Assembly (NCBI GenBank): GCA_964016885.1
Contig: OZ024742.1
Coordinates: 197,966,001 to 198,030,000, forward strand
Length of the DNA: 64,000 nt
Source of the DNA: Eledone cirrhosa
Taxonomy: Eukaryota
Direction: 5' to 3'
In this document: positions 5,046-40,092 of the stretch, piece after piece
Position numbering within the stretch: position 1 is the first letter of the stretch
How the letters are laid out: every line of letters starts with the position of its first letter
Position numbers and translations under genes: made by a program
Notes under the pieces: model-generated
What the model was told of the DNA's origin: nothing
What the model saw: the letters and a program-made list of their open reading frames with translations, nothing else
Databases searched by the model: none

Positions 5046-5070
5046 CACACACACATAAAATACAGACATG

Positions 5071-5109
<39 letters not shown>

Positions 5110-5201: not shown

Positions 5202-5238
<37 letters not shown>

Positions 5239-5975
5239 TATACACACATATACACATATACATACATACACATACATATACATACATACATACACATACA
5301 TACATACACCTAAATATAAACATATATAAATACACACATACGAATAAAGACATATATTCACACATAGACACCTATATACACATATATATATATATATATA
5401 TAAACATATACATATATATCTATATACACACACATACACATACATACACATATATATATATATATATATACACATATATACACACGCACACACATACAGA
5501 CTCGCATACACACTCACATATATATATATATATATATATACATATATATGTGTGTATGTGAGTGTGCGCAAATACATACATATATATACACACACACATA
5601 TAAACACACACAAACACATACATATGCATACATGCACACACACACACATATATCACATAGATACGAAGATAAACATATAAATAGAGAGACATACACATAT
5701 ATACAGAACCCATATACACATACATGCAAACACGCATATACATATATACATATATACACACATATATATTCCTATATACAAGCATACACATACGCACACA
5801 TATATACATATACCTACACATATATATACACCACACATTCACATACACGTACATATATAATACATATATATACATACATATACATACATATGTATGTACA
5901 ATCATATATACACACTCAATCTTACATTCATATTTACATGCTCATATATGTATTTTTATATCTAGAAATAAATAC

Positions 5976-6018
<43 letters not shown>

Positions 6019-7279
6019 ATATAGACACCCATCTACCCATATATTCATACATATACACTTACAAAAACAGATGATAATAGTATGGGGGAAAGGGGGGGGT
6101 TTGGAGAAGGGGATCAAAGTAAATATATGTTTCAAGAAACCTATAATATTTTCCATATCTTAATTCAATGTATGTTCTTACATATTTTCAATGCTAGGAA
6201 ATACGAAATCTATGCATCACAAAATAAAAAAGTATACCATTAATCATATGTCAACTAAACCAAAGATAGTCAACATATTGATTTCCAAGGTGTAAATTAG
6301 TTAGGTTTATAATATTTGAAGCAGAATTATGAAGTCAAACAGTAGTAAATTATTAATTACATTATAACTAAATTAAAGTTAATAATAGGGAAAAGAAACC
6401 CAAATAAAAATAAAATAAAGTATTACATCGGTAGTAGCATATAAATTATATGTAAACTAAGTTAAAAATTATATATTTATTTCAATAGTATATGTTAATT
6501 AGTATATGTTAATTAGGTATACAATACATAAAGCAGATATTGTATTTCATCAATAGCATAATATAATTATATGCAAATAAAAATCAAAATTAATACGCAT
6601 ACACATACATATACATACACATACACATACATATACATATACATACACATATATATATATATATATATACATATATATACACACGTACATACATATATAG
6701 TCACATAAATATACATACAGATACACATACAATACACACATATACATATACATATAGATATACATATCTTTTTCAAAAAATTTGCACAGAATATATTAAC
6801 TAGGTATATATCCAAAAACACCTCCCATTCTATGATTACATGAAATTCTGCAATTCGTCTGTACAAGGATACTAATTTTAAGCTAATTAAAATTAAAATT
6901 AAAGTTTTAGGTTGATTAAAGCTAAAACCAAATAATAAATATATTTCCAAAATGTATATTAATTAGGTCAATAATACTAAAAATTCTTTCTCCGTCATAG
7001 GATACATGATATTATTTTGTTATATTTTATCTGTAAAAGAATTATAATAAAAAAAATTTTATAATAAAAGGTTAAACTAAATTAAAAAATTATAATAAAA
7101 GGTTAAAATAAGTTAAAATTAATCTATAAATTAAATTACTGAATATATATTAGTAATATTTAAAGGTTTTTCAAAATTAATGATTACATAATATTTTCTC
7201 ATCTGTAATAAAATATTAATTAAATTAAATTTATAGGTTAACTAACATTTAAATTAAATTAAATTCTAGAATAATGTTA

Positions 7280-9722
7280 TTAATTAGGTTTATAATATTT
7301 AAATGTTTTTTTTAGTTTATGATTACACGATATAATTAATTCCTGTCTTTTATTTAATAAGATATCCCTAGACTTCATTATTTCAAATAGTTCTTGGGAA
7401 CATAATCTACATTCCTTTCTATTATTTTGATAAGGGGTGGCTCTTTTGAGCACACTCCAGGTCAAATCATATTTTATATTTTTATTTTTATAACTATTGA
7501 TTTTTTCTGCTAGAGATGTTGTATTAGCCAGTGCGGCATTTTTAAAGCTATGTTTGTGGGTATTATACCTTGTCTTAAAATTGTTAGAGGTAGCTCCTAT
7601 ATATGAGCAAATAGAATCTTTAGTTTTAACATTACATTTATAGACTATGTTGTTAACAAGACAATTCCCTTTTAATGGGCAGTTTGTTTTGTTTCTACAG
7701 TTACATCCTTTCGTTAATTCTGTATTTGAGGAGATATTATTGTTAATTTGATGTACTGGTGGTATACTTATAGTTTTCTTACATTTATATGCATTATATG
7801 CACTTATATTTTGTTTTATGTTATTTGTTGTAGAATATGAGAATTTAACTGTAGACCTATTTAAGATTTGATGGTATTTGTGGTTTGGCGGGAAGTTTTT
7901 CTCAAGGATATAAAAAAATTTTTTAGCAATATTATCCTTAACTTGTAAATTAAAAGGAGCATTATACCAAGTAACTCGTCTATTACGGTTTCTATGTTGT
8001 TTATTATTTTTATTATTTTTATATGTTGTATCATGATTTTTACTAGGAGGAATAATGTTAATGATCTCACCACAACTATTTTTAGTTATATTTGTAGATT
8101 TAGGTGTTTTATCTTTTTTATTAGGAGTTTTATTATTAATATTTATTATAGTCTTATGATGAGTAGTTTTTTGAGGGTTACTATACTTTATATTAGAAGA
8201 TTTAGTATTTTGGGGTATACTGTGGGTGGCATTTAGGTGTGTACCTTTCATTTGGTGTTTGTTGGTAATATTATGCTGTATGTTTTCAGTATTTTTAGTA
8301 GAAGTTATATACTCTAATCTATTTTTGTGGCCACTTCTATCTAGAGCTTCATTATAAAAGGTCGCATTTTTATCAAATACATCTTGGTTAGAAGAAAGGT
8401 TAGAAATTCTAAGTGATATATTATATGCAAGGTTTTTTAAGGATAGATTTAGGGTGATTAGATTGTGAGTGTATGTAATGTAAGTTTTGGTTAGGTTTAT
8501 GGTAAGGTTGGTATATACCCGTAGCTAAATCTAAAGTTATATCTAGGAAATTTACTACTTTACTTGTTTTTTCAAAAGTAATATTAAGATTATAATAGTC
8601 CTTAAGGAAAGTTCTAATATGCTTTTTGTTTTTTTCGATTTCTGAAAGGCTAAGGTTGTTAGAAAGAAGAAGACAGTCATCACGATATAAACCACCTTTG
8701 AGGTGGGGAAAAGAGGCATTTATGTTGAAAAGGAGAAAGAGGCCCACAAGATCAGTAATTTGGGCAGAATCGCTTGAACCCATAGTAATATCAAAAAGAT
8801 TACAATAAGTGTTTCTGGTCCAGTATTCATTCTGAAATTCAATAAGTGTTTGTCTAGCATGTGTAATAATGTTAATGTCATCCGAAGTTAAATTAGATCT
8901 ATTTTTAGCAAATATTAATGCTTTGTTCAGGAGTATGGGTGATATAGAAGAATAATAGTTATCTATATCAAACTGTAGGAAAGAAGCAGAAGATTTACAC
9001 CTAATATTTTTAAACCAATTAATTACCTGGGAGGTGTTTTCCCAGAGTGGTAAAATAACGTATTTTCTTATTTGTGGGATGACTCTATCTAAAATTTTTT
9101 TGCTAATTATTCCAATATCTGATTTGGAGGGACATATAAGTCTAATAGAAGGATTAGAGTTAAAGTTAGATTTGTGATCTTTCAGGTTAAAGTGTGGACT
9201 TCTCAATGCCAAAGGTTCAGTTCTATCTTCAATATTTAGTTTTTTTACTATGTTGTGTGTTTTGTTGTTGATGTTGGTGAGTGACGCGTTATTAGATTTT
9301 TTATAACTTTTTCTGAGTTCTTTATATATGAACTCATTATAATGTTCGATATCCATATGATACAAGTTACCAGTTTTGTCCGAGTGGACATGGATTTTTT
9401 TAGACTTTTTTAGGTCCAATAGGGTAGAATCAAGGTCCTTTTGAAAGACGGATTTATACTTTTTAAATTTGAGATGTTTAATTAAATTAAAAAGGTCTTT
9501 CTCGAAGTCTTCAAGTAAAAAGTTGTGTGGTGGATTCTTGTAAGTGTTGAAATCATACATATATTTCCGATCTGCTTGTTTAGATTTTCTATCAAAGTGG
9601 TAGGCTCTCCATCTAACCCTTCTGATAAAATTATTAGTTTTCTGAATCATAAGGAGTAAGAAGTCGTCCTTAGAAGGTATTGGTATGTTTTTTAAGGAGG
9701 TTCCTAAATATTGTTTTTCCAT
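7280..9722 (-). pseudogene. Naiad RT/GIY-YIG ORF with a single +1 frameshift
   Basis: ORFs 8421-9743 and 7280-8251 match the intact plus-strand protein. A6 versus A5 at ..SILKK/SILKN could be a homopolymer sequencing error. Confidence 0.85.
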
Positions 9723-10399
9723 TGTGATATGGATGATGGACAATTGAAAGAGCTCAACTAAATGTATATGGGTTTACAAAATCATACATATATATATGTA
9801 TATACATAAATATAAAATTAATACACACATACAGTACAAAAATACGAATATTTCCGTGAAAATAGGAGCAAAATTATGTAGATAAATCTACCAAGAGTTT
9901 ACGGTAGTGTCCAATCCGTATGAAGAACTCAATGTATTCCGGATATCATGGAAAGAAGAGATGTAATGAAAATCCAATTTCGGTGAAAGATAAACGGTAT
10001 ACAGAGTCAAGATAAAATAAATAATGAACAAACAATTCCTTATATTAAACAAAAAAAGTTCACTATTTTTTGTTTAATATAAGGAATTGTTTGTTCATTA
10101 TTTATTTTATCTTGACTCTGTATACCGTTTATCTTTCACCGAAATTGGATTTTCATTACATCTCTTCTTTCCATGATATCCGGAATACATTGAGTTCTTC
10201 ATACGGATTGGACACTACCGTAAACTCTTGGTAGATTTATCTACATAATTTTGCTCCTATTTTCACGGAAATATTCGTATTTTTGTACTGTATGTGTGTA
10301 TTAATTTTATATTTATGTATATACATATATATATGTATGATTTTGTAAACCCATATACATTTAGTTGAGCTCTTTCAATTGTCCATCATCCATATCACA

Positions 10400-12841
10400 A
10401 TGGAAAAACAATATTTAGGAACCTCCTTAAAAAACATACCAATACCTTCTAAGGACGACTTCTTACTCCTTATGATTCAGAAAACTAATAATTTTATCAG
10501 AAGGGTTAGATGGAGAGCCTACCACTTTGATAGAAAATCTAAACAAGCAGATCGGAAATATATGTATGATTTCAACACTTACAAGAATCCACCACACAAC
10601 TTTTTACTTGAAGACTTCGAGAAAGACCTTTTTAATTTAATTAAACATCTCAAATTTAAAAAGTATAAATCCGTCTTTCAAAAGGACCTTGATTCTACCC
10701 TATTGGACCTAAAAAAGTCTAAAAAAATCCATGTCCACTCGGACAAAACTGGTAACTTGTATCATATGGATATCGAACATTATAATGAGTTCATATATAA
10801 AGAACTCAGAAAAAGTTATAAAAAATCTAATAACGCGTCACTCACCAACATCAACAACAAAACACACAACATAGTAAAAAAACTAAATATTGAAGATAGA
10901 ACTGAACCTTTGGCATTGAGAAGTCCACACTTTAACCTGAAAGATCACAAATCTAACTTTAACTCTAATCCTTCTATTAGACTTATATGTCCCTCCAAAT
11001 CAGATATTGGAATAATTAGCAAAAAAATTTTAGATAGAGTCATCCCACAAATAAGAAAATACGTTATTTTACCACTCTGGGAAAACACCTCCCAGGTAAT
11101 TAATTGGTTTAAAAATATTAGGTGTAAATCTTCTGCTTCTTTCCTACAGTTTGATATAGATAACTATTATTCTTCTATATCACCCATACTCCTGAACAAA
11201 GCATTAATATTTGCTAAAAATAGATCTAATTTAACTTCGGATGACATTAACATTATTACACATGCTAGACAAACACTTATTGAATTTCAGAATGAATACT
11301 GGACCAGAAACACTTATTGTAATCTTTTTGATATTACTATGGGTTCAAGCGATTCTGCCCAAATTACTGATCTTGTGGGCCTCTTTCTCCTTTTCAACAT
11401 AAATGCCTCTTTTCCCCACCTCAAAGGTGGTTTATATCGTGATGACTGTCTTCTTCTTTCTAACAACCTTAGCCTTTCAGAAATCGAAAAAAACAAAAAG
11501 CATATTAGAACTTTCCTTAAGGACTATTATAATCTTAATATTACTTTTGAAAAAACAAGTAAAGTAGTAAATTTCCTAGATATAACTTTAGATTTAGCTA
11601 CGGGTATATACCAACCTTACCATAAACCTAACCAAAACTTACATTACATACACTCACAATCTAATCACCCTAAATCTATCCTTAAAAACCTTGCATATAA
11701 TATATCACTTAGAATTTCTAACCTTTCTTCTAACCAAGATGTATTTGATAAAAATGCGACCTTTTATAATGAAGCTCTAGATAGAAGTGGCCACAAAAAT
11801 AGATTAGAGTATATAACTTCTACTAAAAATACTGAAAACATACAGCATAATATTACCAACAAACACCAAATGAAAGGTACACACCTAAATGCCACCCACA
11901 GTATACCCCAAAATACTAAATCTTCTAATATAAAGTATAGTAACCCTCAAAAAACTACTCATCATAAGACTATAATAAATATTAATAATAAAACTCCTAA
12001 TAAAAAAGATAAAACACCTAAATCTACAAATATAACTAAAAATAGTTGTGGTGAGATCATTAACATTATTCCTCCTAGTAAAAATCATGATACAACATAT
12101 AAAAATAATAAAAATAATAAACAACATAGAAACCGTAATAGACGAGTTACTTGGTATAATGCTCCTTTTAATTTACAAGTTAAGGATAATATTGCTAAAA
12201 AATTTTTTTATATCCTTGAGAAAAACTTCCCGCCAAACCACAAATACCATCAAATCTTAAATAGGTCTACAGTTAAATTCTCATATTCTACAACAAATAA
12301 CATAAAACAAAATATAAGTGCATATAATGCATATAAATGTAAGAAAACTATAAGTATACCACCAGTACATCAAATTAACAATAATATCTCCTCAAATACA
12401 GAATTAACGAAAGGATGTAACTGTAGAAACAAAACAAACTGCCCATTAAAAGGGAATTGTCTTGTTAACAACATAGTCTATAAATGTAATGTTAAAACTA
12501 AAGATTCTATTTGCTCATATATAGGAGCTACCTCTAACAATTTTAAGACAAGGTATAATACCCACAAACATAGCTTTAAAAATGCCGCACTGGCTAATAC
12601 AACATCTCTAGCAGAAAAAATCAATAGTTATAAAAATAAAAATATAAAATATGATTTGACCTGGAGTGTGCTCAAAAGAGCCACCCCTTATCAAAATAAT
12701 AGAAAGGAATGTAGATTATGTTCCCAAGAACTATTTGAAATAATGAAGTCTAGGGATATCTTATTAAATAAAAGACAGGAATTAATTATATCGTGTAATC
12801 ATAAACTAAAAAAAACATTTAAATATTATAAACCTAATTAA
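10400..12841 (+). CDS. Intact Naiad-clade Penelope-like RT + GIY-YIG endonuclease (813 aa from ATG 10400)
   Basis: Motifs SLKNIPIPS, DKT, LKDHK..NP..RLI.P.KS.IG.ISK.ILD, FDIDNYYSSI, MGS.DSA, GLYRDD, VNFLD, SNHP, CNC..CPL.G.C, IVY..YIG...FKTRY..H and C-terminal CxxC..LNKR.E...C.H. Confidence 0.93.
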   Translation: MEKQYLGTSLKNIPIPSKDDFLLLMIQKTNNFIRRVRWRAYHFDRKSKQADRKYMYDFNTYKNPPHNFLLEDFEKDLFNLIKHLKFKKYKSVFQKDLDSTLLDLKKSKKIHVHSDKTGNLYHMDIEHYNEFIYKELRKSYKKSNNASLTNINNKTHNIVKKLNIEDRTEPLALRSPHFNLKDHKSNFNSNPSIRLICPSKSDIGIISKKILDRVIPQIRKYVILPLWENTSQVINWFKNIRCKSSASFLQFDIDNYYSSISPILLNKALIFAKNRSNLTSDDINIITHARQTLIEFQNEYWTRNTYCNLFDITMGSSDSAQITDLVGLFLLFNINASFPHLKGGLYRDDCLLLSNNLSLSEIEKNKKHIRTFLKDYYNLNITFEKTSKVVNFLDITLDLATGIYQPYHKPNQNLHYIHSQSNHPKSILKNLAYNISLRISNLSSNQDVFDKNATFYNEALDRSGHKNRLEYITSTKNTENIQHNITNKHQMKGTHLNATHSIPQNTKSSNIKYSNPQKTTHHKTIININNKTPNKKDKTPKSTNITKNSCGEIINIIPPSKNHDTTYKNNKNNKQHRNRNRRVTWYNAPFNLQVKDNIAKKFFYILEKNFPPNHKYHQILNRSTVKFSYSTTNNIKQNISAYNAYKCKKTISIPPVHQINNNISSNTELTKGCNCRNKTNCPLKGNCLVNNIVYKCNVKTKDSICSYIGATSNNFKTRYNTHKHSFKNAALANTTSLAEKINSYKNKNIKYDLTWSVLKRATPYQNNRKECRLCSQELFEIMKSRDILLNKRQELIISCNHKLKKTFKYYKPN

Positions 12842-14102
12842 TAACATTATTCTAGAATTTAATTTAATTTAAATGTTAGTTAACCTATAAATTTAATTTA
12901 ATTAATATTTTATTACAGATGAGAAAATATTATGTAATCATTAATTTTGAAAAACCTTTAAATATTACTAATATATATTCAGTAATTTAATTTATAGATT
13001 AATTTTAACTTATTTTAACCTTTTATTATAATTTTTTAATTTAGTTTAACCTTTTATTATAAAATTTTTTTTATTATAATTCTTTTACAGATAAAATATA
13101 ACAAAATAATATCATGTATCCTATGACGGAGAAAGAATTTTTAGTATTATTGACCTAATTAATATACATTTTGGAAATATATTTATTATTTGGTTTTAGC
13201 TTTAATCAACCTAAAACTTTAATTTTAATTTTAATTAGCTTAAAATTAGTATCCTTGTACAGACGAATTGCAGAATTTCATGTAATCATAGAATGGGAGG
13301 TGTTTTTGGATATATACCTAGTTAATATATTCTGTGCAAATTTTTTGAAAAAGATATGTATATCTATATGTATATGTATATGTGTGTATTGTATGTGTAT
13401 CTGTATGTATATTTATGTGACTATATATGTATGTACGTGTGTATATATATGTATATATATATATATATATATGTGTATGTATATGTATATGTATGTGTAT
13501 GTGTATGTATATGTATGTGTATGCGTATTAATTTTGATTTTTATTTGCATATAATTATATTATGCTATTGATGAAATACAATATCTGCTTTATGTATTGT
13601 ATACCTAATTAACATATACTAATTAACATATACTATTGAAATAAATATATAATTTTTAACTTAGTTTACATATAATTTATATGCTACTACCGATGTAATA
13701 CTTTATTTTATTTTTATTTGGGTTTCTTTTCCCTATTATTAACTTTAATTTAGTTATAATGTAATTAATAATTTACTACTGTTTGACTTCATAATTCTGC
13801 TTCAAATATTATAAACCTAACTAATTTACACCTTGGAAATCAATATGTTGACTATCTTTGGTTTAGTTGACATATGATTAATGGTATACTTTTTTATTTT
13901 GTGATGCATAGATTTCGTATTTCCTAGCATTGAAAATATGTAAGAACATACATTGAATTAAGATATGGAAAATATTATAGGTTTCTTGAAACATATATTT
14001 ACTTTGATCCCCTTCTCCAAACCCCCCCCTTTCCCCCATACTATTATCATCTGTTTTTGTAAGTGTATATGTATGAATATATGGGTAGATGGGTGTCTAT
14101 AT

Positions 14103-14206
<104 letters not shown>

Positions 14207-14943
14207 GTATTTATTTCTAGATATAAAAATACATATATGAGCATGTAAATATGAATGTAAGATTGAGTGTGTATATATGATTGTACATACATATGTATGT
14301 ATATGTATGTATATATATGTATTATATATGTACGTGTATGTGAATGTGTGGTGTATATATATGTGTAGGTATATGTATATATGTGTGCGTATGTGTATGC
14401 TTGTATATAGGAATATATATGTGTGTATATATGTATATATGTATATGCGTGTTTGCATGTATGTGTATATGGGTTCTGTATATATGTGTATGTCTCTCTA
14501 TTTATATGTTTATCTTCGTATCTATGTGATATATGTGTGTGTGTGTGCATGTATGCATATGTATGTGTTTGTGTGTGTTTATATGTGTGTGTGTATATAT
14601 ATGTATGTATTTGCGCACACTCACATACACACATATATATGTATATATATATATATATATATATGTGAGTGTGTATGCGAGTCTGTATGTGTGTGCGTGT
14701 GTATATATGTGTATATATATATATATATATATGTGTATGTATGTGTATGTGTGTGTATATAGATATATATGTATATGTTTATATATATATATATATATAT
14801 GTGTATATAGGTGTCTATGTGTGAATATATGTCTTTATTCGTATGTGTGTATTTATATATGTTTATATTTAGGTGTATGTATGTATGTGTATGTATGTAT
14901 GTATATGTATGTGTATGTATGTATATGTGTATATGTGTGTATA

Positions 14944-14980
<37 letters not shown>

Positions 14981-15072
14981 CTTTATTATTATTGTAATAT
15001 AACTTATGTGTATATGTGTATAAGTGAGGTTGTGTATGTATATATACTATGTGTATATATAAAGGTAATGAA

Positions 15073-15111
<39 letters not shown>

Positions 15112-15136
15112 CATGTCTGTATTTTATGTGTGTGTG

Positions 15137-15167
<31 letters not shown>

Positions 15168-15226
15168 ATATGTGTATGTATATATGCATATATGTGTACG
15201 TGTGTGTATGTTTATATATATACATA

Positions 15227-15265
<39 letters not shown>

Positions 15266-15375
15266 GGATGTTTGTATGTGTTTTCATGGTGGTATGAGTG
15301 TGGAATATATATGTTTATGTATAAGTATATGTATGTGTATATATATATATATGAGTCTATGTGTGTGTGTGTATA

Positions 15376-15422
<47 letters not shown>

Positions 15423-16193
15423 ATGTGTGTATGTGTTGCGCGTGTGTGTGTCCGTATTTTTATCTTTTTATATGTGTATGTGTATGTTCGTGTAAATATA
15501 TGTGTGTGTAGGACACTATAGGTATGTGTGTATCTATGTATGTGTAGATATCTCTATGTGCGCGTACATGTACGTATGTGTATGTATATCTGTATGCGTA
15601 TGTACATTATATTATGTAATATATTTTATTGTTTTTATTTTTTTATTTTTCATAATTTATAGATACATTTATATTAGGCTGTCTGGTCTGACAACCTAAT
15701 ACTGACCCCTCCCCCCCCCTCCCACCTAATTTCTGTATCTTGATCTTGAAATGTATGTATCAGTGTGTTTATGTGAGTGACTTAATTTCTATTTGCTTAT
15801 GATTTTATATCCACATATATAAATGTGAGTGGGGGGTGTGTGTGTGTTTGTGTGTTCGTGGTTATGTGTATATTTTTATATATATGCGCACATGTATGTG
15901 TGATTATACTGATATGTGTGAGTATGAAGAAAAAATATATTTATATGCTTGACTACATAAGTATCATTGCGTATCTTATCAGCGCATTAAGCTTACAGAG
16001 ATATTAACCTTGAAATTTTTTATTTGCATCCATCTTTTTAGTATGCACATACATATTATACACACATTATTGTAAAATGTGTGTGGGGTTTTACATGTAT
16101 ATACACACACCAAACTGCTTTTTAACCCTTTGTGTTTTCATTGGTCAATTTTGAACTGATATTTTGAATTGTTGTTATTATCAATAAATATAC

Positions 16194-21767: not shown

Positions 21768-22723
21768 CTAGACATGAAAAATGCGCAAGCTCAAAAGTGC
21801 CACAGAATGTTATAATAAACCTTCAAAAGTGTGGGACTAGAGTTGTTGCTAAAAAATATTGTAATCATTATATATCGTACATTCTGTGGCATCCTTTATA
21901 AAAATAGCTTAAACCAACGAAGCCTTTATTTTTACGCTATTTCACTTAGTTAATTCTTAGAGTGTAACATATAAAAATAAATACATCTATGTTTAATGTA
22001 ATAACAGCTATAAATAATTACGTAATATTATTATCATATACTCATAGTAACAAAATAATTGTGTTGAAAATTAATATGATGCTTATATGAACGATCAAAT
22101 CTATAATGATAATTTCTTAAATATACTAATAGTAAAATAATTTAGTTATCTATTGTTACATTTTCATAGAACTATAATATTAACAATCGTATTGCATTAT
22201 CAAATTTTTATCACTACAAACTTTCATATTGGAATTACCTTAAGCCACTTATTATTACTTCGCTTTCGTACTTTTACAGCTGTAGATATTGCGCTGTATC
22301 TTATATCTAATATCAATATCTCATGGTAATTTGCATGCAGTGTAAAATAGGTTTATTAATAACTTTAATATGAAATGTATTATACAGGGCTGCGGAGTCG
22401 GCCAAAAATTGACTGGCTCCAACTCAGGATCCGATATTCCCTTATTTCCTAAATTTCAGCTCCGCAGCTCTGTTATTATATTAATTAATTTATTTTATAG
22501 TTGTAAATCATATTTTTATATGTTACACTCTAAGAATTAACTAAGTGAAATAGCGTAAAAATAAAGGCTTCGTTGGTTTAAGCTATTTTTATAAAGGATG
22601 CCACAGTATGTACGATATATAATGATTACAATATTTTTTAGCAACAACTCTAGTCCCACACTTTTGAAGGTTTATTATAACATTCTGTGGCACTTTTGAG
22701 CTTGCGCATTTTTCATGTCTAGT
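21768..22723. mobile_element. Foldback/MITE-like element with ~210-bp inverted arms ending ACTAG..CTAGT (second copy 39128-40082)
   Basis: 21768-21978 is the reverse complement of ~22513-22723. Confidence 0.7.
22385..22472. mobile_element. 88-bp hAT-type MITE nested in the foldback
   Basis: TIR CAGGGCTGCGGAG/CTCCGCAGCTCTG; 8-bp TSD gtattata/ttattata (7/8 match). Confidence 0.65.
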
Positions 22724-22972
22724 ATATATATATAAATGTAAGTATGCATGTATACGTACATACATATATGTATACAGACGTACAGTAGCATGCACATATA
22801 TATATATACATATATACATACATATGCATACAGGTACACATACATATATGCACGTATCAGTTTAGCGGCGCTAACGTCGCTTTGTTCGTTTGTAAACAAA
22901 CTGAACAGCCTGAATTTATGCCATACGGTGTTAAGGCAACCACGTCACCTTTTTGTTCAACACTGACACAGG

Positions 22973-23017
22973 AACGATGTACTAGTTTCAAGCTTGTTAG
23001 CTATCATCAGCACCGTT
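22973..23017 (-). ncRNA. Minimal type I hammerhead ribozyme (family A)
   Basis: Reverse complement of 23382-23426. Confidence 0.88.
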
Positions 23018-23297
23018 TACCCATCTGCCAGATAGTTGAACGTTCGAAAGTATATACTTTCCTTATGAAAATTAACGGCTGAGCAGCCTAATTTGCATAT
23101 TGAGTGAGTTAAATCGGTCAGGCATACCGAAAACGATAAATTGAAACAAAATGAAAACGAAATTTCATTTCTCACTCTTAGTATGGCACTTACTTAAATG
23201 TAAGTATGCATGTATACGTACATACATATATGTATACAGACGTTTCATTTTGTTTCAATTTATCGTTTTCGGTATGCCTGACCGATTTAACTCACTC

Positions 23298-23374
23298 AAT
23301 ATGCAAATTAGGCTGCTCAGCCGTTAATTTTCATAAGGAAAGTATATACTTTCGAACGTTCAACTATCTGGCAG
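23298..23374 (+). promoter_or_regulatory. Putative snRNA-type promoter cassette (octamer, PSE-like, TATA-like) upstream of family A HHR
   Basis: ATGCAAAT 23301-23308, TATATA 23343-23348, TGGCAG 26 nt later. A homologous block with the same spacing is at 46840-46917. Confidence 0.45.
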
Positions 23375-23381
23375 ATGGGTA

Positions 23382-23426
23382 AACGGTGCTGATGATAGCT
23401 AACAAGCTTGAAACTAGTACATCGTT
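23382..23426 (+). ncRNA. Minimal type I hammerhead ribozyme (family A); cleavage after GUA 23419
   Basis: AACGGTG-CTGATGA-T-AGCT-aaca-AGCT-T-GAAA-CTAG-TA-CATCGTT; 7-bp stem I, palindromic stem III ACTAGT. Confidence 0.9.
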
Positions 23427-23968
23427 CCTGTGTCAGTGTTGAACAAAAAGGTGACGTGGTTGCCTTAACACCGTATGGCATAAATTCAGGCTGTTCAGTT
23501 TGTTTACAAACGAACAAAGCGACGTTAGCGCCGCTAAACTGATACGTGCATATATGTATGTGTACCTGTATGCATATGTATGTATATATGTATATATATA
23601 TATATATGTGCATGCTACTGTACGTCTGTATACATATATGTATGTACGTATACATGCATACTTACATTTAAGTAAGTGCCATACTAAGAGTGAGAAATGA
23701 AATTTCGTTTTCATTTTGTTTCAATTTATATATATATATGTATATATATATGTATATATATATATATGTATACATATATATGTATTTATATGTGTATATA
23801 TATATGTATATAAATATGTATATATATATATGTATATATATATGTATATATATATGTATGTATATGTATATATATGTGTATATATATGTATATGTATATA
23901 TATGTATATGTATATATATATGTATATGTATATATATTTATGTATATATATGTGTATATATATATATG

Positions 23969-24015
<47 letters not shown>

Positions 24016-24246
24016 GTATATATATATATATGTATATTTATATATGTATATATATATGTATATATATGTATATATATATATGTATATATATATGTGTATA
24101 TATGTATGTATTAGAATTGGAGCTCTGAAATAGCAATATATATATGGATGTATATATAATGTATTTTGCAATACACTTTATGCTTAATTAAAAGCATTTT
24201 GAAGACCGTAAGCTATTGTTTTAAAGTAGTGACAAATTCACTCACT

Positions 24247-24343
24247 TTGATCTCAGCAAACAGGGGAGATAAGCCGAAATTTCATGTTTCGCTTTTGTTG
24301 AAGCTTATCAAGGCCAACTACCCCGCCTGTCTACTGAGATCAA
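24247..24343 (-). ncRNA. Hammerhead variant (U3-A8 core UUGAUAA) on long rod; cleavage triplet mutated in this copy
   Basis: Minus strand reads GGGGTAGTTGGCC-TTGATAA-GCTT-caacaa-AAGC-GAAA-CATG-AAATTTCGGC. Confidence 0.55.
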
Positions 24344-24702
24344 TGATGTTATATTCTTATAGAAATCTAGTAAATAATCAGGATCTGATTATGCAGAGCG
24401 GTTGTTGGTCAGGCAGAAATTAAAAATTAGAATTGGAGCTCTGAAATAGCAATATATATATGGATGTATATATAATGTATTTTGCAATACACTTTATGCT
24501 TAATTAAAAGCATTTTGAAGCCGTAAGCTATTGTTTTAAAGTAGTGACAAATTCACTCACTTTGATCTCAGCAAACAGGGGAGATAAGCCGACATGACAT
24601 TTCAGAGCTCCAATTCTAATTTTTAATTTCTGCCTGACCAACAACCGCTCTGCATAATCAGCTCCTGATTATTTACTAGATTTCTATAAGAATATAACAT
24701 CA

Positions 24703-26486: not shown

Positions 26487-26525
26487 TGAACAAGTACTTT
26501 CATGCTTTCGCAATCTTCAGGTTCA
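26487..26525 (-). ncRNA. Minimal type I hammerhead ribozyme (39 nt)
   Basis: TGAAC-CTGAAGA-T-TGC-gaaa-GCA-T-GAAA-GTAC-TT-GTTCA; palindromic stem III AAGTACTT. Confidence 0.88.
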
Positions 26526-26910
26526 TAATGTGTGGTGACAGTCAAGTTTGCAATTTTCAACTGTAATGAGATGGCTAAATTTTGTACCTTATATACAGTG
26601 AAAAGTGGCTCCAGAATGCTATATCTTGCAAACTGTATTTCGACCAATCGGTGTGTAGTTTCACTGAATTACTAAAGCTGATTGGTTTAGGCATCGCGGT
26701 TGGTTGAAAATGTCTAATGACCACTAATTGATCCTATCCAAAGCATCAATTGTTTTGCTATTTTTAGAAATGATGAAAATAGCATTTTCTAGTAATCATC
26801 ACAATCAACATCACTTTTATTATTATTATTATTGTTGTTGTTGTTGTTAGTGGTGGTAGTCGACATGGTTGTAGGCGTAGTCATAGTAGGAGTAATACCC
26901 CTAAGCATAA

Positions 26911-29200
26911 TTATTGTTCATTTAGCTTGGGTTTGAATTTATCAATAAAATTCTTTTCTTTGATTTTTCTCTTGATTTCACTTGGGCTGTGTAATTTGTA
27001 GAATGGGAATATTATAAATATTCCCTGTCCACATGTTGCTAGATGGTTTCTTAGGGGTATCTGATGGACATTTAGGTCTCTGATTTGCTGACGGTGTACC
27101 CGTGCACGTTCCAATAGTGCATTTCCAGTTTGACCGACATATAGTTCTTCACAATTCGGCCATTTAATGCAGTAAATTAGATTTCTGCTTTTGCAGTTCA
27201 TATTTGCATTTGGGAATGTTTTTCCAGTTTTTATTTTCATATATTGACCGGCGTGTATGGATTGATATGTGCCGCATCGACTATCATTGCATTTAGATAC
27301 AGTGAATGATTGGTCTTTGTTGTTAAGGTCAAACTTTGCCTCTGTTAGTAATTGCTTCAAATTTTTCGGCTGTCTTTTACTAAGAGTCAAAGATCGATCT
27401 GTGATTAAGCCTTTTAATTCATTACTTTGAACAATGATCGGTAGGTTTGCTTTGGCAGTGTTGAAGATATTCTGGTGACATGGGTTGTGTGTCATTATAA
27501 ATGGGTTGACCAGTTCTTGGTTTCTTCTTCCTTGGGTTGTCCTAAGTTGTTGTATAGGTATTTTTATAGCCCGCTGTATGCCATTTTCTATAAGTAGAGA
27601 TGGGTATTTTTGTTTGAGCAAAAATTCTCTTAGTTCTGTTAGGCGTTTGTACCTGGTATTCGTATCTTCTACAATGGTACAAATTCTTCTAGCTAGACAG
27701 TATGGGATGTTGCGTTTTGTATGAGGTGGATGGCACGACTTAAAATTCAGATATTGATGGGTATCTGTGTGTTTATAATATATATCCGTGGTAATGGTGG
27801 TGTCGTTTTTGATTATCATTATATCTAGGAATGGTAATTTGGTCCTACTCATCTCTTTTGTGAATTGGAGAGATGGGTGTAGGTTATTCAGGAGGATATT
27901 GAACTCATCCATAGTATCTAGAGATTCTGTCCAGATGATGAAACAGTCGTCAAGGTATCTCTTCCAAGATTTTTCAATGTACTTTCTAAAGTCAGTACTA
28001 TATTTTTCCTCTATTTTTTGGTAGAGTTGTTGTTCTAAGTATCCCATTACAGACTTCGCGTAAACGGGAGCAAACTTCGTTCCCATCGCTGTGCCTCTAA
28101 TTTGGATGTAATTCTTTCCATTGAAGAAGAAAGTGTTGTTTTCTAGAATAAGTTTAACTGCGTCTAATATAATTGGCGCTGTGAATCTGATGGGAATCAC
28201 TTATCTATGTTTTTCCACCCAGTATTTAACCGCCTTTATTCCTAAATCATGTGTAATGTTGGTGTAAAGGCTTACCACATCAAAACTAAGTAGAAGTGAA
28301 TTCGTTTCCGTGGTTTTGGGAAGATGGGACAGGAAGTCGATATCATCCCGGATGAAACTGGGTATGTGAATACATAGTGGTTTCAAAATAATGTCAACAA
28401 AATTGCTTAGACGGTGGGTGGGGCATGTTGGACCAGCTATAATAGGTCTAAGTTTTAAGTCTTTTGGGTGTAGTAATTTAATGTACTCACTGTTTTGTTC
28501 TCTTACTGCCAGTTGTATTTCTTTTGACTTATGAACTTTCGGTAGGCCATACAGGTTGCAGGTTTTGGCTCAAAATTGGTGATGTAGTCTCTTTCCTTAT
28601 CAGTAAGTGAGTTGTGGTATTTTGAAGCCAGGTTGTTGATCTTCTTCATGATGTTGTGGTCTATATTTGACGGTATTTCATGATAGAATGTGTCTTTCAG
28701 TTGTTCTTCAACCAAATCCTTGTAGTATTCAGCATCCATTATAACAACTGCACCCCCTTTATCTGCTTGTTTAATTATTATTGTTTTATCATTTTGTATA
28801 CGTTTAAGTGCAGACATTTCTGATTTGTTAATGTTTGGCCTAACATTAGTATTACGTCTAAGAGGAAATTTAGACAGGATGTCAATGTATTGGTCGAGAT
28901 AGATATTTCTTCCTTTTGGCGGAGTGAAATTTGATTTATTTTTTACTAGTGATTCATCACTCTCATTACTTTTATCAGCGAAGAATTCTACAAGACGTAA
29001 TTTTCGACAGAATTCTTGGGTATCCTCCTTCAGTTCTTGATGGTTGACTGCTGGAGTCGGTGTGAATTTCAGTCCTTTTGACAGAATTTGCATTTCATCA
29101 TTGTCAAGATCTCTTTTGGATAAATTAATTATTTTAGGATCTACGTGTACAGTTGTTTTGGGTATGTTTCCTTCTGGAGTTTTTCTTTTTCCGGTTTTTG
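26911..29200 (-). pseudogene. PLE RT/GIY-YIG, frameshifted
   Basis: LSKGLKFTPTP, ADKGG, FDVVSLYTNI, GTAMGT, RYLDD, SCHP, C...RC linker, LIY..LYVGQTG, E..I....P.LN. Confidence 0.9.
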
Positions 29201-29258
29201 TTGTCCTGACGTTAAAAAATGGATTTTTCTCTGTTCAGGATTTATATTCCTGTTGGTG

Positions 29259-30844: not shown

Positions 30845-32251
30845 ATTGTTATACTTTGGGAGGGTCATGTTGCCAATAAGAAACACACGCACCAGTTGCT
30901 TTCACTTCAATTTATTATATATTTATAAATTTATAAATTTACAAATCTACAAATTTATAAATTTCTGGTTGGTTGGTTGGTTCCACAACCAGATAGTTGT
31001 TTATATATAGTCATAGTCCTTTCGTCACACACTCTGTGACCTCTTCAGTGACTGGGGATTCCTTTCTTTGTTTCTGTGCCTTTCCTTTCTTCTGTCCTAC
31101 GCCATTTTGTTTCTGTGTGTGTGTTGTGTGCTGAGTTTGCGCATGCGCCACATCCAGGTGTCTGTGTGTGTTTGTGTTCATTTATCTATTTGTTTATTTA
31201 TTTACATGTTGTTGGTTGGTTGTTTATTCTATGTGTGTGTGTGTTTTCATTTTGTCCTTAATTGTAAGTTGTGATGTTGCTGTTCCACTCATATTTTCTA
31301 TTTAATTTTGGTTGTAATTCTTTTATGTTTACTGCCTCTGTAATTTGTCTAAACATTGCATCTTTTCTGTGTGTAGATTCTATTTTTATTTCTATGTTCT
31401 CTAATTTATCCTTGTGTTCTATCTTAGCATGTTGGTAGAGTACATATGATTCTTTATTATCTTGAAGGTCTCGCCAGTGTTCATTTATCCGTTCCCCTAT
31501 ACTACGAGCTGTCTCACCTATGTACACTATATTTTTGTTTCTACATTGTCCTTCAGTACATCTTATGCTATACACTACATTTCTAGTTTTACAGTTAATA
31601 TGCGGGCTTATTTTACAGGTTATACATTTCTTATCTATACATGAGGGTCTTTGGAACGGGTATGTCTTGCTAATAAGTGTTTTTACGGAGGTACCTGGTC
31701 TTTCTACTATCTTAATATTGAGTTTATGTTTATTTATGGCCCTTCTAAATTTGTAGGCTAGTTCGCCTCTAGGGGTTGTATCGATGAACATTACACTCTG
31801 GTATTTATTGCTATCATACCATGAGTTTATTCTATTGGCCTTGTTCCTAGTTCTTTCTATTCTATTCCAAAATTTGCTCCTATACAAGGGGCAGGTCCCA
31901 TTTATGTCATTATTTACCATTTTTTCCCATTTGGTTCTGGCTCCTCTATACACTCTGATTCTATCTCTCTGATTGTAGCCAGAGAACTGCATACGGTGGA
32001 TGAAGTGTTGTATGTGTCTCTCTAGTTCTTCGGGGTTGCACATGCGGGACACATTTCTCATCACCCGTACCAAATCCGCAATCAGTATGTTGATTTTGGT
32101 ATGGTCCGAAATGGCCGAGTTTCGGTGGATCAGATGTTTGGAAGTCATGGGTTTGGCATAATTGGCAACATGACCCTCCCAAAGTATAACAATATCGGTT
32201 TCAACACACGATTTCAGATAAAGAATCTTGCTAAACAAATTCAGAAACGAA
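30845..32251 (-). mobile_element. PLE-A-related fragment (thumb + GIY-YIG) with short inverted 5' end plus tail
   Basis: 31258-32160 encodes [27 protein letters not shown], similar to 1026-2453. 30845-30877 is inverted at 32161-32193, with a tail to 32251. Confidence 0.88.
31009..31053 (-). ncRNA. Minimal type I hammerhead ribozyme
   Basis: AGTCA-CTGAAGA-G-GTCACA-gagtg-TGTGAC-GAAA-G-GA-CTA-TGACT. Confidence 0.78.
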
Positions 32252-32367
32252 ATATATGTATATATATATATATGTATATATGTATATGTATATATATATG
32301 TATATGTATATATATGTATATATATATATATATATGTATATATATGTATATATAGATGTATATAGAT

Positions 32368-32409
<42 letters not shown>

Positions 32410-32845
32410 GTATATGTATATGTATATATAGATGTATATAGATGTATATATATATATATATGTATATATAGATGTATATATATATATGTATATGTATATA
32501 TATATGTATATATATATGTATATGTATATATATATATGAATATATATATATATGTATATGTATATATATATGTATATGTATATATATATGTATATATATA
32601 TGTATATATAGATGTATATATATGTATATATAGATGTATATATATAGATGTATATATATGTATATATAGATGTATATATATAGATGTATATATATGTATA
32701 TATAGATGTATATATATATATATATCTATATATAGATGTATATATATATGTGTATGTATATGTAGATGTATATATATATGTATATGTATATATAGATGTA
32801 TATATATATATGTATATGTATATATAGATGTATATATATATATAT

Positions 32846-33453
32846 GTCAGGTCACCAGTTGGTGCTACTGGTAACATGTATCCCAGTACAACCTGTCTCA
32901 TGGTCGGGTCGTTGGCGTCTAAACTGGCAACCCCACCAAGGTTTCTTGGTGAGGAGGGTGACTTTGGACATCCTGCAGGACTAAAAACAAAACCTGTCAA
33001 AGGGCAAGGGAGCTCTTAAGACTCAATAGCCATCCAAAATCACCGGGAGAGATGACTCCTTAGCCTTTGTCAAGGCAGAATTCTAGGAGAAGGAAAACTC
33101 TGATATAACACCTGCAACCCTGATGGTATCCAATGATGTTGACTTGTTCTTCTTTTTGGTAAATATCATCTTGGTTAAGAGAGTGGGACTGGCTTTGTGC
33201 AGTGCCTTTGCTCACTATAAAAGCTTCACAGCACAGGCATTGCTTTATATCTGGAGATCTCTCTGCACTTGTCATCACATGGTACCATGGGCCCTGCACT
33301 ATGTGTCAATAATGGTCACAAGTGTAGTGTTCGTACCAGAGTTTTTAAGTCGCTGGCTGGACTAAAAAGTCACATTCGTTCAGCGCATCGGTAGGGGTTC
33401 TCCTACATGGATATAAAGTAGTGGCCGTACTCGAAAACGAGTTGGCAGCCACC

Positions 33454-34116: not shown

Positions 34117-34179
<63 letters not shown>

Positions 34180-34189
34180 GTATGTATGT

Positions 34190-34619
34190 ATGTATACGTA
34201 CATACATATATGTATACAGACGTACAGTAGCATGCATATATATATATATATATATATACACATACATATATGTACGTATCAGTTTAGCGGACGTTTATTA
34301 TAACGCCCGCTTTGTCCGTTTGTAAACAAACTGACAGCCTGAATTTATACCGTACGGTGTTAAGGCAACCACGTCACCTTTTTATTCAACACTGACACAG
34401 GAACGATGTACTAGTTTCAAGCTTCTTTGCTATCATCAGCACCGTATACCCTTCTGCCAGATGGTTGAACGTTCGAAAGTATATACTTTCCTTATGAAAA
34501 TTAACGGCTGAGCAGCCTAATTTGCATATCGAGTGAGTTCAGTCGGCCAGGCGCACCGAAAAAGATAAGTTGTAATAAAATGAAAACGAAATTTCATTTC
34601 TCACTCTTAGTACGGCACT
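34190..34619 (-). mobile_element. Diverged family A monomer with HHR at 34402-34445
   Basis: Aligns with 22748-23190. Core CTGATGA-T-AGC-aaagaa-GCT-T-GAAA-CTAG-TA is intact. Confidence 0.82.
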
Positions 34620-35410
34620 GTGGAGCGTGGAGAACAATAGCACGCAAAGACAAAACCGCGTAAATGGTATAGCAGAAGTCGTAGACTAAAATTAATCTCC
34701 GCTACAGAGTTAAGAACAAAGTAAATAAATACAATACAGAAGTAATAGAAACAAATAAATACATACATGCAAACAGATACGTACATACACAAGCATACGC
34801 AAAACCTTACCATAGGTATACAAAACCACGCACATATAAATGTGTGTGTGTGTGTATGCTTGTGTACAAATAAATAAATAAATAATTATATCAACATATA
34901 TAAGTAAATAAATACGTATATAACAAGCGCACACGCATACCTACATATAAATACACGAATGTTCGGAGACTAAAACAAGAAGTACACATATACACACACC
35001 CACCATACGTACGAACCTGCATACTCACGCAGACGCAAAACTCCCGTATACACATAGCCAAACCCTAAATACCAGACTATGTAAAAATTATACGCCATAA
35101 CAGTCAAATATACGTACGAGAAGGTATACATACCTTCACAAAACATACGGGTAATCTATACTTACCTATGCAAATAACTAAAGGAATAAACAAAACATAT
35201 ACTTAGCTCCCACATCAAGACGTAAAATATCCACGTATAGATGGTGCTATCCGTTAGGGTATAACGTGGGGCTGTAATACAGGAAAGTTTTGTGCAATTT
35301 ATGTTTACAAGCCGAAATTGCCTCAGATTTTTTGTTTAAGATTTGGTCTGTGGCGTAGAGTATTTCCAGGGCCTCAGCGGCGCAGAGATCACATGGTCTT
35401 TTATTTCCGA
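34620..35410 (-). mobile_element. Second Naiad-type family: ORF C-terminus and 3' UTR
   Basis: 35247-35410 encodes CDLCAAEALEI..ILNKKSEAISACKHKLHKTFLYY, matching the C-terminus of the 813-aa ORF. Confidence 0.8.
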
Positions 35411-35988: not shown

Positions 35989-36025
35989 TATAGATAGATA
36001 TAAATAGAAGTATAAATAGAAGTAA

Positions 36026-37380
36026 TAATAGGTGTCATACCAAAAGATTGGTGCAGTAGCATCATTGTCAACTGCTACAAAGTTAAAGGTGATGCACTAG
36101 ATAGAGGAAACTATAGTGGTATAAAGCTGATGGACCAGGTCATAAAAGTAACAGAAAGAGTTATAGCACAGTTGATTAGGGACTGGGTGAAACTAGATGA
36201 GATGCAATTTGGGTTTGTACCAGGAAGAGCCACTACTGATGCCCTCTTCCTTGTGAGGCAGTTACAGGAAACGTACCTAGCTAAAATTAAGCCACTCTAC
36301 CTGGCATTCGTCGATCTCGAGAAAGTCTTTGACAGAGTTTCACGTGCTGCAATCTGGTGGGCTCTTAGAAAACTAGGAGTAGATGAATGGCTTGTGAAAG
36401 CTGTACAAGCCATGTATAGGGGAGCAGTCAGCAAAGTTAGGATTAGCAATGAGTATAACGAGGAATTTAGCGTACAGGTTGGGGTCCACCAGGGCTCTGT
36501 TCTTAGCCCTATCCTGTTCATCATAGTCCTGCAGGCAATAACGGAGGAGTTTAAGACCAGATGCCCATGGGAACTCCTGTATGCAGATGACCTCGCACTT
36601 ATAGCTGAATCTATGGTAGAACTAGAGAATAAATTCCAAACTTGGAAGCAAGGACTAGAAAGAAAGGGTCTCAAAGTCAACATGAAAAAGACTAAGGTCC
36701 TTGTAAGTAGATGAAAAACAGAACCCAGATCTCCCCAGGGAAATGGCCTTGCTCAGTATGTAGGAAAGGTGTAGGTAGGAACTCCATTCTCTGCCCCAAA
36801 TGCAAACAATGGGTACACAAGAGATGTAGCGGGATCTCAAGAAGCTTAATTAAGAATGTAGGCTTCACATGTAGCAGCTGTGCTGGGACAGCAAGCAGCA
36901 AAGAGCCACAGGAAACAAGTGCCACCAATCTCTGGGAGGGCTCTGTAGAAACAGTATAAAGCTTCTGCTAGCTAGGTGACCGAATTAGCAGCGGAGGTGG
37001 GTGTTCAGAAAATACAATAACTAGGGAAGAACCGGATGGAAGAAGTTTTGGGAACTACTGCCACTGCTAGCTGCAAAAGGCTTCTCCCTCAAAATGAAAG
37101 GCAGACTGTATGATGCGTGTATCCGAATAGCAATGTTACGTGGTAGTGAGACCTGGGCGCTGAAGGTGGAAGATTTACGTAGATTTGAAAGAAAAGAAGC
37201 CTACATGCTCCGATGGATGTGTAATAGTAATATACGCGAACGGCAAAGCATAAATGAATTGAGAAAGAGACTGAGCATAAGAGGAATCAAATGCTGTGTG
37301 CAGGAGAGGCGGTTGCGTTGGTATGGACATGTGATGCGTATGAAGGATGACAGCTGCATAAAAAGGTGCAGACCACTAGA
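36026..37380 (+). mobile_element. RTE-type LINE RT fragment with PHD-like finger inside the RT region; decayed
   Basis: QFGF, FVDLEKVFD, GVHQGSVLSP, LLYADD, then CSVC..CPKC..HKRC..CSSC, RLRWYGHV. Confidence 0.85.
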
Positions 37381-40092
37381 AGTCTGGAACCCCTATCTTG
37401 CTCAGAACATTGACCTCCTGGAAACTGTTCAGAGACATGCAACCAAGCGCATACCCTCCATCAGACACCTACCATACCCTGAATATTTTGCTTCCCTCTG
37501 GCAATGGACTTGGTAAACACCCACAAAGTTATTAACCATCCGACCAACAACAACCCCGAACACCTTTTTGATCTCCATGTGTCTAACACGTGGACATGCC
37601 TACAAAGTCAGAAAACAACACAGCTCCCATGACTTTAGGAAATATTTCTTCATGCTCAGAGTTGCTGAAGGATGGAACAAACTTCCTGCATCAGTTGTTA
37701 GCTGATGACACACTGCATCCTTTAAAACCATCATACATTCCGAAATACACCAAAACTACACCTGATGTCCCCCTTCCATACACATGCACATATGTGTATA
37801 TCATGACTCATGCACTGTTCTTTTTTCCTGACGTTTTTATATTACCCTATGTATTATATATGCACTTTTGATGAGTTGTAGTGCACCTCAGCATTGTACA
37901 CAATATTTTCATTATTATTATCATTATTATTATTACACTCATTGATCCATTTTGCACTAACTCTGCATCAAGCACCCTCACCTAAATATTAACCAATCAA
38001 GGATCCAATACAGCTATCTGTTGGATGAGTATTGTATAGTGCCAAAAACGAAACCAATCAGTTTAGCAGAAAGTTTCCAGACAAGAAACACGCATATTTT
38101 GCTATCCTCAAACACGTTTACACATGGCATGAAATATAACTAATCCGAGATGGCTAGGTTTCATCTTCTAACTGGACATACGAAATCCATTATGTCTTGA
38201 CAACAACATGAGGTAACATTATGTTATTCACAGACACACTTTGTACACTGTTCCATATCAGAATGTATTTCCTTCGTCACATTCACAAACAGTATTGAAA
38301 ATATGTTCTTCGGCAAATAAAAATGTTTTGTTCATAATATTTCAACTAGCGATTGCTCTACTCCACGCACGACCACCATAAATTAATGACCAGCTCAACA
38401 CAAGTATTGGTAGAGCGTCAGACACCATGCTTTGCAGTATTGTTATGGTCCTTTGCATTCTAAGTTCAAATCCTGCCGAGGTTAACTTCGACTTTCATAC
38501 TTACTAATTCGATAAAATAAAGTACCAGTAATGGACTGCCGTAATGGATTTGTGCCGAAAAATAGAAACACTATTAATGTGCAATAAGAGCAAAATATAA
38601 CGACATTGCTCAATTATTTTATCTAATGTTGTAATAACACAAGGAAATGTTGTTTGTGTATTTTTTTTTATATTTGCTCATAGGCTTTTACAATTTCGCT
38701 CAGCCAACAACTATTAAAAAGTGAGTTGCTTAAGATAACAATTTAATCACAAATTGTTGCTATCTTTTAATACACTCCAACAAGTCATCAAATTATGTAC
38801 AATAAAAACAAATCTTATTAATTTGCTCAGGGAATATAAAGAAAATGTATATACACTGATAATTGCAATTGTATGTAAATATTTTGTTTTTGTATTGTTT
38901 ATTTTATGTTTTCTATTATGTATAATATATTGATTTAATATTGATTGTTTTTTGTAGTTGTTTATATTAAAAGTCTGAAAATATTTTTATACATCTTACA
39001 CTAATATTTATAAGATAATTTATAATAACAATTACATAATCTAATTACATTACAACGATAATTTATTATTAATATATATCCTCTTTAACTAGAGTTATTA
39101 CAAGCGTTGCCTTAAAAAAATATTAAACTAGACATGAAAAATGCGCAGGCTCAAAAGTGCCACAGAATGTTATAATAAACCTTCAAAAGTGTGGGACTAG
39201 AGTTGTTGCTAAAAATATTGTAATCATTATATATCGTACATTCTGTGGCATCCTTTATAAAAATAGCTTAAACCAACGAAGCCTTTATTTTTACGCTATT
39301 TCACTTAGTTAATTCTTAGAGTGTAACATATAAAAATAAATACATCTATGTTTAATGTAATAACAGCTATAAATAATTACGTAATATTATTATCATATAC
39401 TCATAGTAACAAAATAATTGTGTTGAAAATTAATATGATGCTTATATGAACGATCAAATCTATAATGATAATTTCTTAAATATACTAATAGTAAAATAAT
39501 TTAGTTATCTATTGTTACATTTTCATAGCACTATAATATTAACAATCGTATTGCATTATCAAATTTTTATCACTACAAACTTTCATATTGGAATTACCTT
39601 AAGCCACTTATTATTACTTCGCTTTCGTACTTTTACAGCTGTAGATATTGCGCTGTATCTTATATCTAATATCAATATCTCATGGTAATTTGCATGCAGT
39701 GTAAAATAGGTTTATTAATAACTTTAATATGAAATGTATTATACAGGGCTGCGGAGTCGGCCAAAAATTGACTGGCTCCAACTCAGGATCCGATACTCCA
39801 TTATTTCCTAAATTTCAGCTCCGCAGCTCTGTTATTATATTAATTAATTTATTTTATAGTTGTAAATCATATTTTTATATGTTACACTCTAAGAATTAAC
39901 TAAGTGAAATAGCGTAAAAATAAAGGCTTCGTTGGTTTAAGCTATTTTTATAAAGGATGCCACAGAATGTACGATATATAATGATTACAATATTTTTTAG
40001 CAACAACTCTAGTCCCACACTTTTGAAGGTTTATTATAACATTCTGTGGCACTTTTGAGCTTGCGCATTTTTCATGTCTAGTATATATATAT
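37381..40092 (+). repeat. 2.7-kb local duplication, copy 2
   Basis: Matches 20021-22733; starts abruptly, fusing RTE to CR1 sequence. Confidence 0.95.

Follow-up and report, generated by a model that had tools for sequence, protein, structure and literature searches.

We conclude that the insert at positions 22733–23729 of a 64,000-nt stretch of Eledone cirrhosa DNA (assembly GCA_964016885.1, contig OZ024742.1; hereafter the window) represents a single young insertion in which a very common 466-nt repeat with a hammerhead motif stands back to back, and that this repeat, judged from its sequence, is a metazoan non-LTR retrozyme. The family offers unusually direct genomic evidence both for circular RNA templates and for two-ended insertion of the Penelope type, with the retrozyme circle probably being copied by a borrowed Penelope-like enzyme into cut (TA)n from both DNA ends. 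The retrozyme identity, already proposed in a sequence-only reading of the window, is supported by the presence of a hammerhead in each unit, the tandem arrangement of low-GC units, the lack of an encoded protein and the dispersal of retrotransposed copies.

The insert consists of two head-to-head arms with 99% identity. With unit positions numbered from the predicted hammerhead cut, the left arm (22733–23243, minus strand, 1.11 units) has its 3′ end at position 251, designated site A, and its 5′ end at position 203; the right arm (23245–23729, its start lying at 23243/23245, plus strand, 1.05 units) has its 3′ end at position 310, designated site B, and its 5′ end at 290/291. As had been described, each arm is one monomer plus a terminal redundancy. 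The periods are 462 nt (left) and 466 nt (right), a gap of 4 nt that reflects AT-repeat length only, and the redundancies comprise 49 nt in the left arm (22733–22781, minus strand, repeating 23195–23243) and 19 exact nt in the right arm (23711–23729, plus strand, repeating 23245–23263), or 21 nt counting 23243–23244. Both 5′ ends meet at 23243–23245 with an overlap of about 1 nt, and site A (23670) and site B (23729) are set apart by a 59-nt ‘tail’ (23671–23729, plus strand). On the left the insert borders a (TA)n target (22721–22732) without a readable target-site duplication, and on the right a (TA)n-rich microsatellite (23730–24109), adjoined in turn by a 316-bp direct repeat pair at 24110–24600. 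Comparison of the units of both arms revealed no A>G marks of the kind discussed below. Short, unmarked and ordinary, this insert is by itself an uninformative member of its family, and on its two arms alone a circle and an uncut linear multimer are indistinguishable. The different permutation of the arms is not evidence for a circle, since the insert is a two-site structure with short arms.

Both arms carry a type I hammerhead motif, located at 23383–23425 (+) in the right arm, with the core at 23389–23395 and 23410–23413, and at 22974–23016 (−) in the left arm. In agreement with the claim of an intact cut site in the middle of each arm, core and predicted cut were seen, the latter at GUA after 23419 and mirrored between 22980 and 22979 on the minus strand. 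In the right arm, stem I has 6 bp and is extended by two outer helices, stem II combines a U-U mismatch with 4 bp, and stem III is a palindromic helix of 2 bp. An Rfam scan of the insert gave nothing at gathering score, and the only match below threshold (Hammerhead_HH9, 18.5 bits, E 0.15) spanned both motifs, so the hammerhead assignment depends on core motif and stems. Core and three stems are preserved across six lineage haplotypes, and 0 compensatory changes were found among seven distinct rows. Changes borne by natural copies include A452G and A460G. The 71-nt motif by itself folded no better than shuffled sequences (z −0.37). The strong fold of the right arm (z −7.95) is due in part to a long AU-rich hairpin of variable length at 23540–23648 (+); of the 18 repeated A>G marks known from sister copies, 10 fall within it. 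miRNA matches over this hairpin were dismissed as low-scoring composition effects. Regarding coding potential, the unit (466 nt, GC 0.36) has a longest stop-free frame of 81 aa in sense and 114 aa in antisense over three laps, and no reverse transcriptase or GIY-YIG ORF was found in it.

An older, one-armed copy with 86–88% identity occupies 34175–34619 (−), and has its hammerhead motif at 34403–34445; its 3′ end lies within (TA)n and corresponds to site A. The longer hairpin and altered stem II loop that had been noticed there (as 34190–34619) are indeed present; the copy comprises 0.99 unit and is thus not longer than one unit. Its 5′ end is abutted by a 3′ fragment of a Hydra-type Penelope-like element (34620–35408, minus strand; endonuclease C-terminus and UTR).

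Pattern searching puts the family at a minimum of 16,130 units across the 3.0 Gb of the genome. A 31-mer spanning the cut has 14,256 exact matches genome-wide and its reversed control 0, so that the abundance of the motif is not a matter of chance, and a string that marks the young subfamily of the window is matched 4,498 times. Arms were analysed in two sets. The first, taken from the clusters behind the first 100 of the listed 31-mer matches (start of contig C1), comprises 65 non-redundant loci with 109 arms, both window copies included, after leaving out 24 small loci replaced by larger ones and two palindrome-driven arms; the second comprises 34 young inserts with 58 arms. Both were picked by within-unit strings and hence favour longer arms, the first favouring also arms that cross the cut. 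In the first set, 38 of the 3′ ends fell at 243–259 (site A, mode 251) and 50 at 291–310 (site B, mode 310), so that 88/109 arms end within two windows totalling 37/466 positions, the two sites being 59 nt apart; 15 further ends lie within the AU hairpin, where (TA)n flanks blur them, and 6 elsewhere. The 5′ ends of the same arms are dispersed over the unit. The permutation map proposed as a check of ‘differently permuted copies’ therefore reveals ends that are not randomly permuted, and the family is better described by two fixed 3′ ends with random 5′ truncation. Nor is a length just over one unit a family trait, as had been suggested: arms range from 0.1 to 9.4 units in the first set, with 14/109 between 1.0 and 1.15, and have a median of 2.96 and a maximum of 15.8 units in the young set, with 4/58 in that interval.

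The two 3′ end sites, like the (TA)n targets and the head-to-head arms, recur among the inserts of the family, and their pairing is strict. Among 31 head-to-head pairs of the first set, 21 combine A with B, none combines like with like (A+A or B+B) and 10 have an end outside both windows, while 23 of the 24 pairs of the young set are A+B when window B is widened to 287–316. Pooling both sets minus two shared inserts yields 53 distinct two-armed inserts, of which 42 are A+B, 0 like-with-like and 11 have an end outside the windows; 42 out of 42 classifiable inserts would arise under free choice with p ∼2e-13. According to the accessible parts of the literature, to which all citations here and below refer, an enzyme of a Penelope-like element, predicted to be dimeric, was shown in vitro to cleave AT-rich DNA on both strands and to extend each of them; it begins copying from a pair of neighbouring internal positions on the RNA, and the gap between these becomes the genomic tail (PMC11167929). 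Likewise, Penelope-like elements display a tail at one end, an inverted 5′-truncated arm and (TA)n targeting (PMC8557442). Two start sites with a tail, an inverted 5′-truncated arm and a microsatellite target are all present in the 466-nt family, and on this signature the retrozyme appears to be a passenger mobilised in the Penelope style.

Evidence on the template comes from the manner in which units are repeated. The 9 nt spanning the cut are exact in 14,979/16,130 units (92.9%), and young arms retain an exact 12-mer in 199/203 cut crossings; a cut linear monomer is an unlikely template because the read-through is so seamless. Variants were counted on the ribozyme strand in the 34 young inserts, repeated ones being included if present in fewer than three inserts. 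Those repeated in at least two units of an insert comprised 18 A>G, 3 C>T and 1 T>C; singletons were strand-symmetric, with 10 A>G and 9 T>C out of 112. Loci L123 and L134–L151, picked by their A>G patterns, were omitted from this spectrum test, and eight lineage markers were set aside. Since locus L108 supplies 12 of the 18 repeated A>G changes, the comparison was also made without it, giving A>G in 6/10 repeated variants versus 10/111 singletons (Fisher p 3e-4); when each insert is counted once, the excess of A>G shrinks to 6 versus 1 (p 0.046). Strand-specific clustered A>G is a signature of ADAR, an enzyme with a preference for the base 5′ of the edited A, and a 5′ neighbour G preceded 1/42 of the changed A's versus 17/140 (p 0.03). 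Marked sites were not enriched in the predicted pairing of the circle (0.62 vs 0.61 for other A's), and editing may instead have occurred on sense-antisense duplexes of inverted inserts.

One such case is L108 (C1:160,405,392–160,411,449), found via a G>A lineage marker. Its 11.7-unit arm alternates unit types X and Y over six laps, all 12 of its marks are A>G, and the opposite arm is in phase, ending in the same unit type with the other type before it. The X string, the one searched, has six genomic matches, all at L108. As edits are molecule-specific and the same ones recur in each lap, L108 therefore points to one RNA read six times, and its template would most simply have been a two-unit circle. 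Similar patterns include an A94G string present in six consecutive units at one locus and in one elsewhere and, among loci selected by an A>G string, a set of five A>G marks at L136–L139, present in each of the three units as well as in the opposite arm and recurring at L140, and more than 20 A>G in one copy at L143. Two further candidates for private marks were rejected, 327A as it belongs to a lineage of 472 units and 361A with 13 matches at seven loci. At L116, A>G at core position A15.1 of one ribozyme occurs in phase in both arms and is possibly a cut-blocking edit. Within single inserts, the two arms agree in their marks and in unit length (L089, L091, L095, L096, L098, L110 and L112), and together with the strict A+B pairing we infer from this one RNA molecule per insert. 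The circular template advanced in the sequence-only reading is thus retained as the best reading for the family, though the reasons offered there, permutation and unit length, do not sustain it; the two-site signature of the Penelope type and the A>G marks of sister copies had escaped that reading.

Other templates have to be weighed against the circle. Reverse transcriptase might have copied a cut linear RNA of one or two units, jumping at each lap from the 5′ end of this RNA back to the 3′ end; marks would likewise be repeated each lap, and end-to-end template jumping is known from R2 enzymes, but the seamless cut junctions noted above, together with 5′ ends within positions 1–10 in 1/109 arms (a sample picked by a cut-spanning string), make this highly improbable. 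Short RNA-derived arms could also have been lengthened afterwards at the DNA level by unequal exchange or slippage, whereby edited blocks would be repeated too. An array at C3:180,043,400–180,056,200 (L190–L192), with an arm of more than 25 units in a ten-unit higher-order repeat, contains a five-unit local duplication, and L121 shows a two-unit duplication with many old mutations in common; the two-unit pattern of L121, in which one of the ribozymes has an altered core, was itself discounted as perhaps the outcome of a later duplication in the DNA. However, inverted arms share marks and unit length at the seven loci listed above, L108 would need five exchanges among near-identical units, each shifted by two units, and arrays are long already when very young, so that we regard such lengthening as improbable for the family.

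More weight, although still in the range of the unlikely, is due to a two-site Penelope-like insertion whose template is an uncut linear multimer of a donor array, the ribozyme being weak or idle. The two arms of the window are fully compatible with it. The arrays at L093, L094 and L116 are mosaics, those of L093 and L116 with identical variant order in both arms, and in the C3 array the changes are mostly other than A>G, with a stem III change in half of the units and five stem III changes in the ten-unit pattern; periodic patterns are therefore possible without editing marks, and mosaics and ten-unit array together imply a contribution from multimeric templates or from duplication in the DNA as well. 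Furthermore, the weak stem III and the U-U mismatch of the motif are features linked in axolotl to low monomer cleavage (PMC7229834), and an anole element is inserted without need for ribozyme cutting, uncut RNA being the main substrate in vitro (PMC11167929). On the other hand, in a linear RNA of 12 units editing would strike each unit independently, yet the same 12 marks recur six times in L108; no donor with the searched L108 string was found in the genome, nor a donor array for the A94G change fixed in six consecutive units.

The helper enzyme of the proposed route is most likely, with about an even chance, a Hydra-clade Penelope-like element. Several Penelope-like families occur within the window. 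An 830-codon frame at 10349–12841 (+; ORF 10400–12838) has RWR, DKT and CxCX5C motifs that fit the Hydra description (PMC8557442). It is mirrored by a frame-split copy at 7280–9773 (−) and belongs to a large inverted duplication (4660–15520, centre at ∼10060, flanks included) that is a fold-back insertion or an assembly artefact. The window's 813-aa ORF returned 118 relatives in a homologue search, and Pfam searches with five Penelope-like ORFs of the window gave one sub-cutoff GIY-YIG match. Hydra-type fragments are joined to the retrozyme without a TA spacer at L032, L045, L051 and window position 34620; only L051, whose odd 3′ end enters reverse transcriptase sequence, looks like a template switch, and the 5′ end of L033 is joined directly to an RTE copy, so such joins can be mere target sites. 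No terminal-repeat sequence in common with a helper was found against 18 flank and element fragments. Identifying the helper through its neighbourhood was abandoned as not convincing, Hydra-type fragments being present at 15/105 family loci (344 kb) and 3/17 control loci (170 kb), without a clear excess.

Other elements deserve mention. Frames for a Penelope-like reverse transcriptase and GIY-YIG at 550–2453 (+), in the region 354–2770, lie between two hammerhead-like motifs in inverted orientation (354, minus strand; 2724, plus strand), and L032 and L082 contain protein matches to them with 99% identity. Two further Penelope-like elements on the minus strand (26500–29234 and 31000–33015) carry a hammerhead-like motif downstream (26528 and 31056), that of the former having a U-U base in stem II as well, and a hammerhead-like motif at 46927–46970 (+) is unrelated to the 466-nt family. 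The 3′ end of a young Hydra-type family (L086:1795–1850 and L037, reverse strand 8076) includes a hammerhead-like motif with CAGAAGA for CUGANGA, and at L080 both insert flanks start at an identical truncation point of a Hydra-type element. Reverse transcriptase fragments of LINE type at 36016–37516 and 50530–53805, with a fuller copy on the minus strand of the latter, are presumably RTE-like, to judge from their motifs.

Metazoan non-LTR retrozymes are likewise non-coding, tandem and low in GC, carry one type I hammerhead per unit, range from monomers to multimers in thousands of copies, and coexist with Penelope-like elements in the same genome (PMC7229834; PMC7761336; bioRxiv 10.64898/2026.07.22.740005), and the U-U base of stem II recalls HHR_Amex2 of axolotl (PMC7229834). 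The unit of 466 nt compares with 170–400 nt in one account (PMC7229834) and 51–972 nt in another (bioRxiv 10.64898/2026.07.22.740005). Expression and circles have been demonstrated for known retrozymes (PMC7229834; bioRxiv 10.64898/2026.07.22.740005), whereas for the 466-nt family circles are postulated from genomic marks; in Xenopus, 8/9 elements are described as lacking self-cleavage (bioRxiv 10.64898/2026.07.22.740005). Circle-templated reverse transcription and mobilisation by Penelope were proposed from co-occurrence and terminal-repeat homology (PMC7229834; bioRxiv 10.64898/2026.07.22.740005), and rolling-circle reverse transcription, Penelope helpers and more-than-unit cDNA are standing proposals (PMC7229834, PMC4209133, PMC7761336); arms in our samples reach 15.8 units. 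No retrozyme with paired start sites, or with editing marks that recur lap by lap, turned up in the open literature, and paired inverted arms are not described in the retrozyme accounts cited, though supplements and subscription papers may hold such reports.

Endonuclease-bearing Penelope-like elements also have two adjacent internal start sites, a tail at one end only, an inverted arm at the 5′ side, AT-rich or (TA)n targets and a hammerhead upstream of the starts (PMC11167929; PMC8557442). The 466-nt family differs from them, as described in these sources, in having no reverse transcriptase or endonuclease frame, in arms that are pure unit repeats, in a tail of 59 nt versus 30–40 nt, and in the strict one-of-each pairing in 42/42 classifiable inserts. 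With the Hydra-clade elements, several families of which occur in the genome, it has (TA)n targeting and hammerheads in common (PMC8557442), but no shared terminal or ribozyme sequence was found. Non-autonomous Chlamys elements such as MRC1 are likewise non-coding, head-to-tail, multicopy and thought to be moved by a Penelope-like element; unlike the 466-nt family, they resemble their helper at the 3′ end, and most Chlamys elements are described as lacking canonical hammerheads (PMC8557442). The origin of the tandem and inverted structures of Penelope is termed undefined in the same source (PMC8557442).

Taken together, the proposed cycle, which we consider likely, would run as follows. The non-coding 466-nt repeat would be transcribed, cut itself and be ligated into a circular RNA; both DNA ends would then prime on one RNA molecule, at unit positions 251 and 310, each reverse transcriptase would roll for 0.1 to 16 laps, and the two cDNAs would be joined at their far ends with an overlap of 0–6 nt. 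Repeated A>G changes would be ADAR-catalysed A-to-I edits of the template, inscribed once per lap, and templates would be mostly monomer circles, occasionally dimers or larger. We also lean, if only slightly, towards a broader view in which arrays are fossils of single RNAs, a dimeric enzyme, rolling and ADAR editing jointly carrying edits into germ-line DNA and founding new lineages, and in which edits in the ribozyme may set monomer versus dimer.

The thousands of young insertions in one assembly allow marks specific to a molecule to be tallied lap by lap and arm by arm, and the questions of rolling-circle copying and of the Penelope structures become testable computationally and in vitro with the 466-nt family. 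If the broader view is true, the family would amount to proof in vivo that retrotransposition proceeds by a rolling circle, and the tail and inverted arm of Penelope would find a single-step explanation. Editing would then feed directly into germ-line sequence, and RNA editing would become heritable germ-line mutation.
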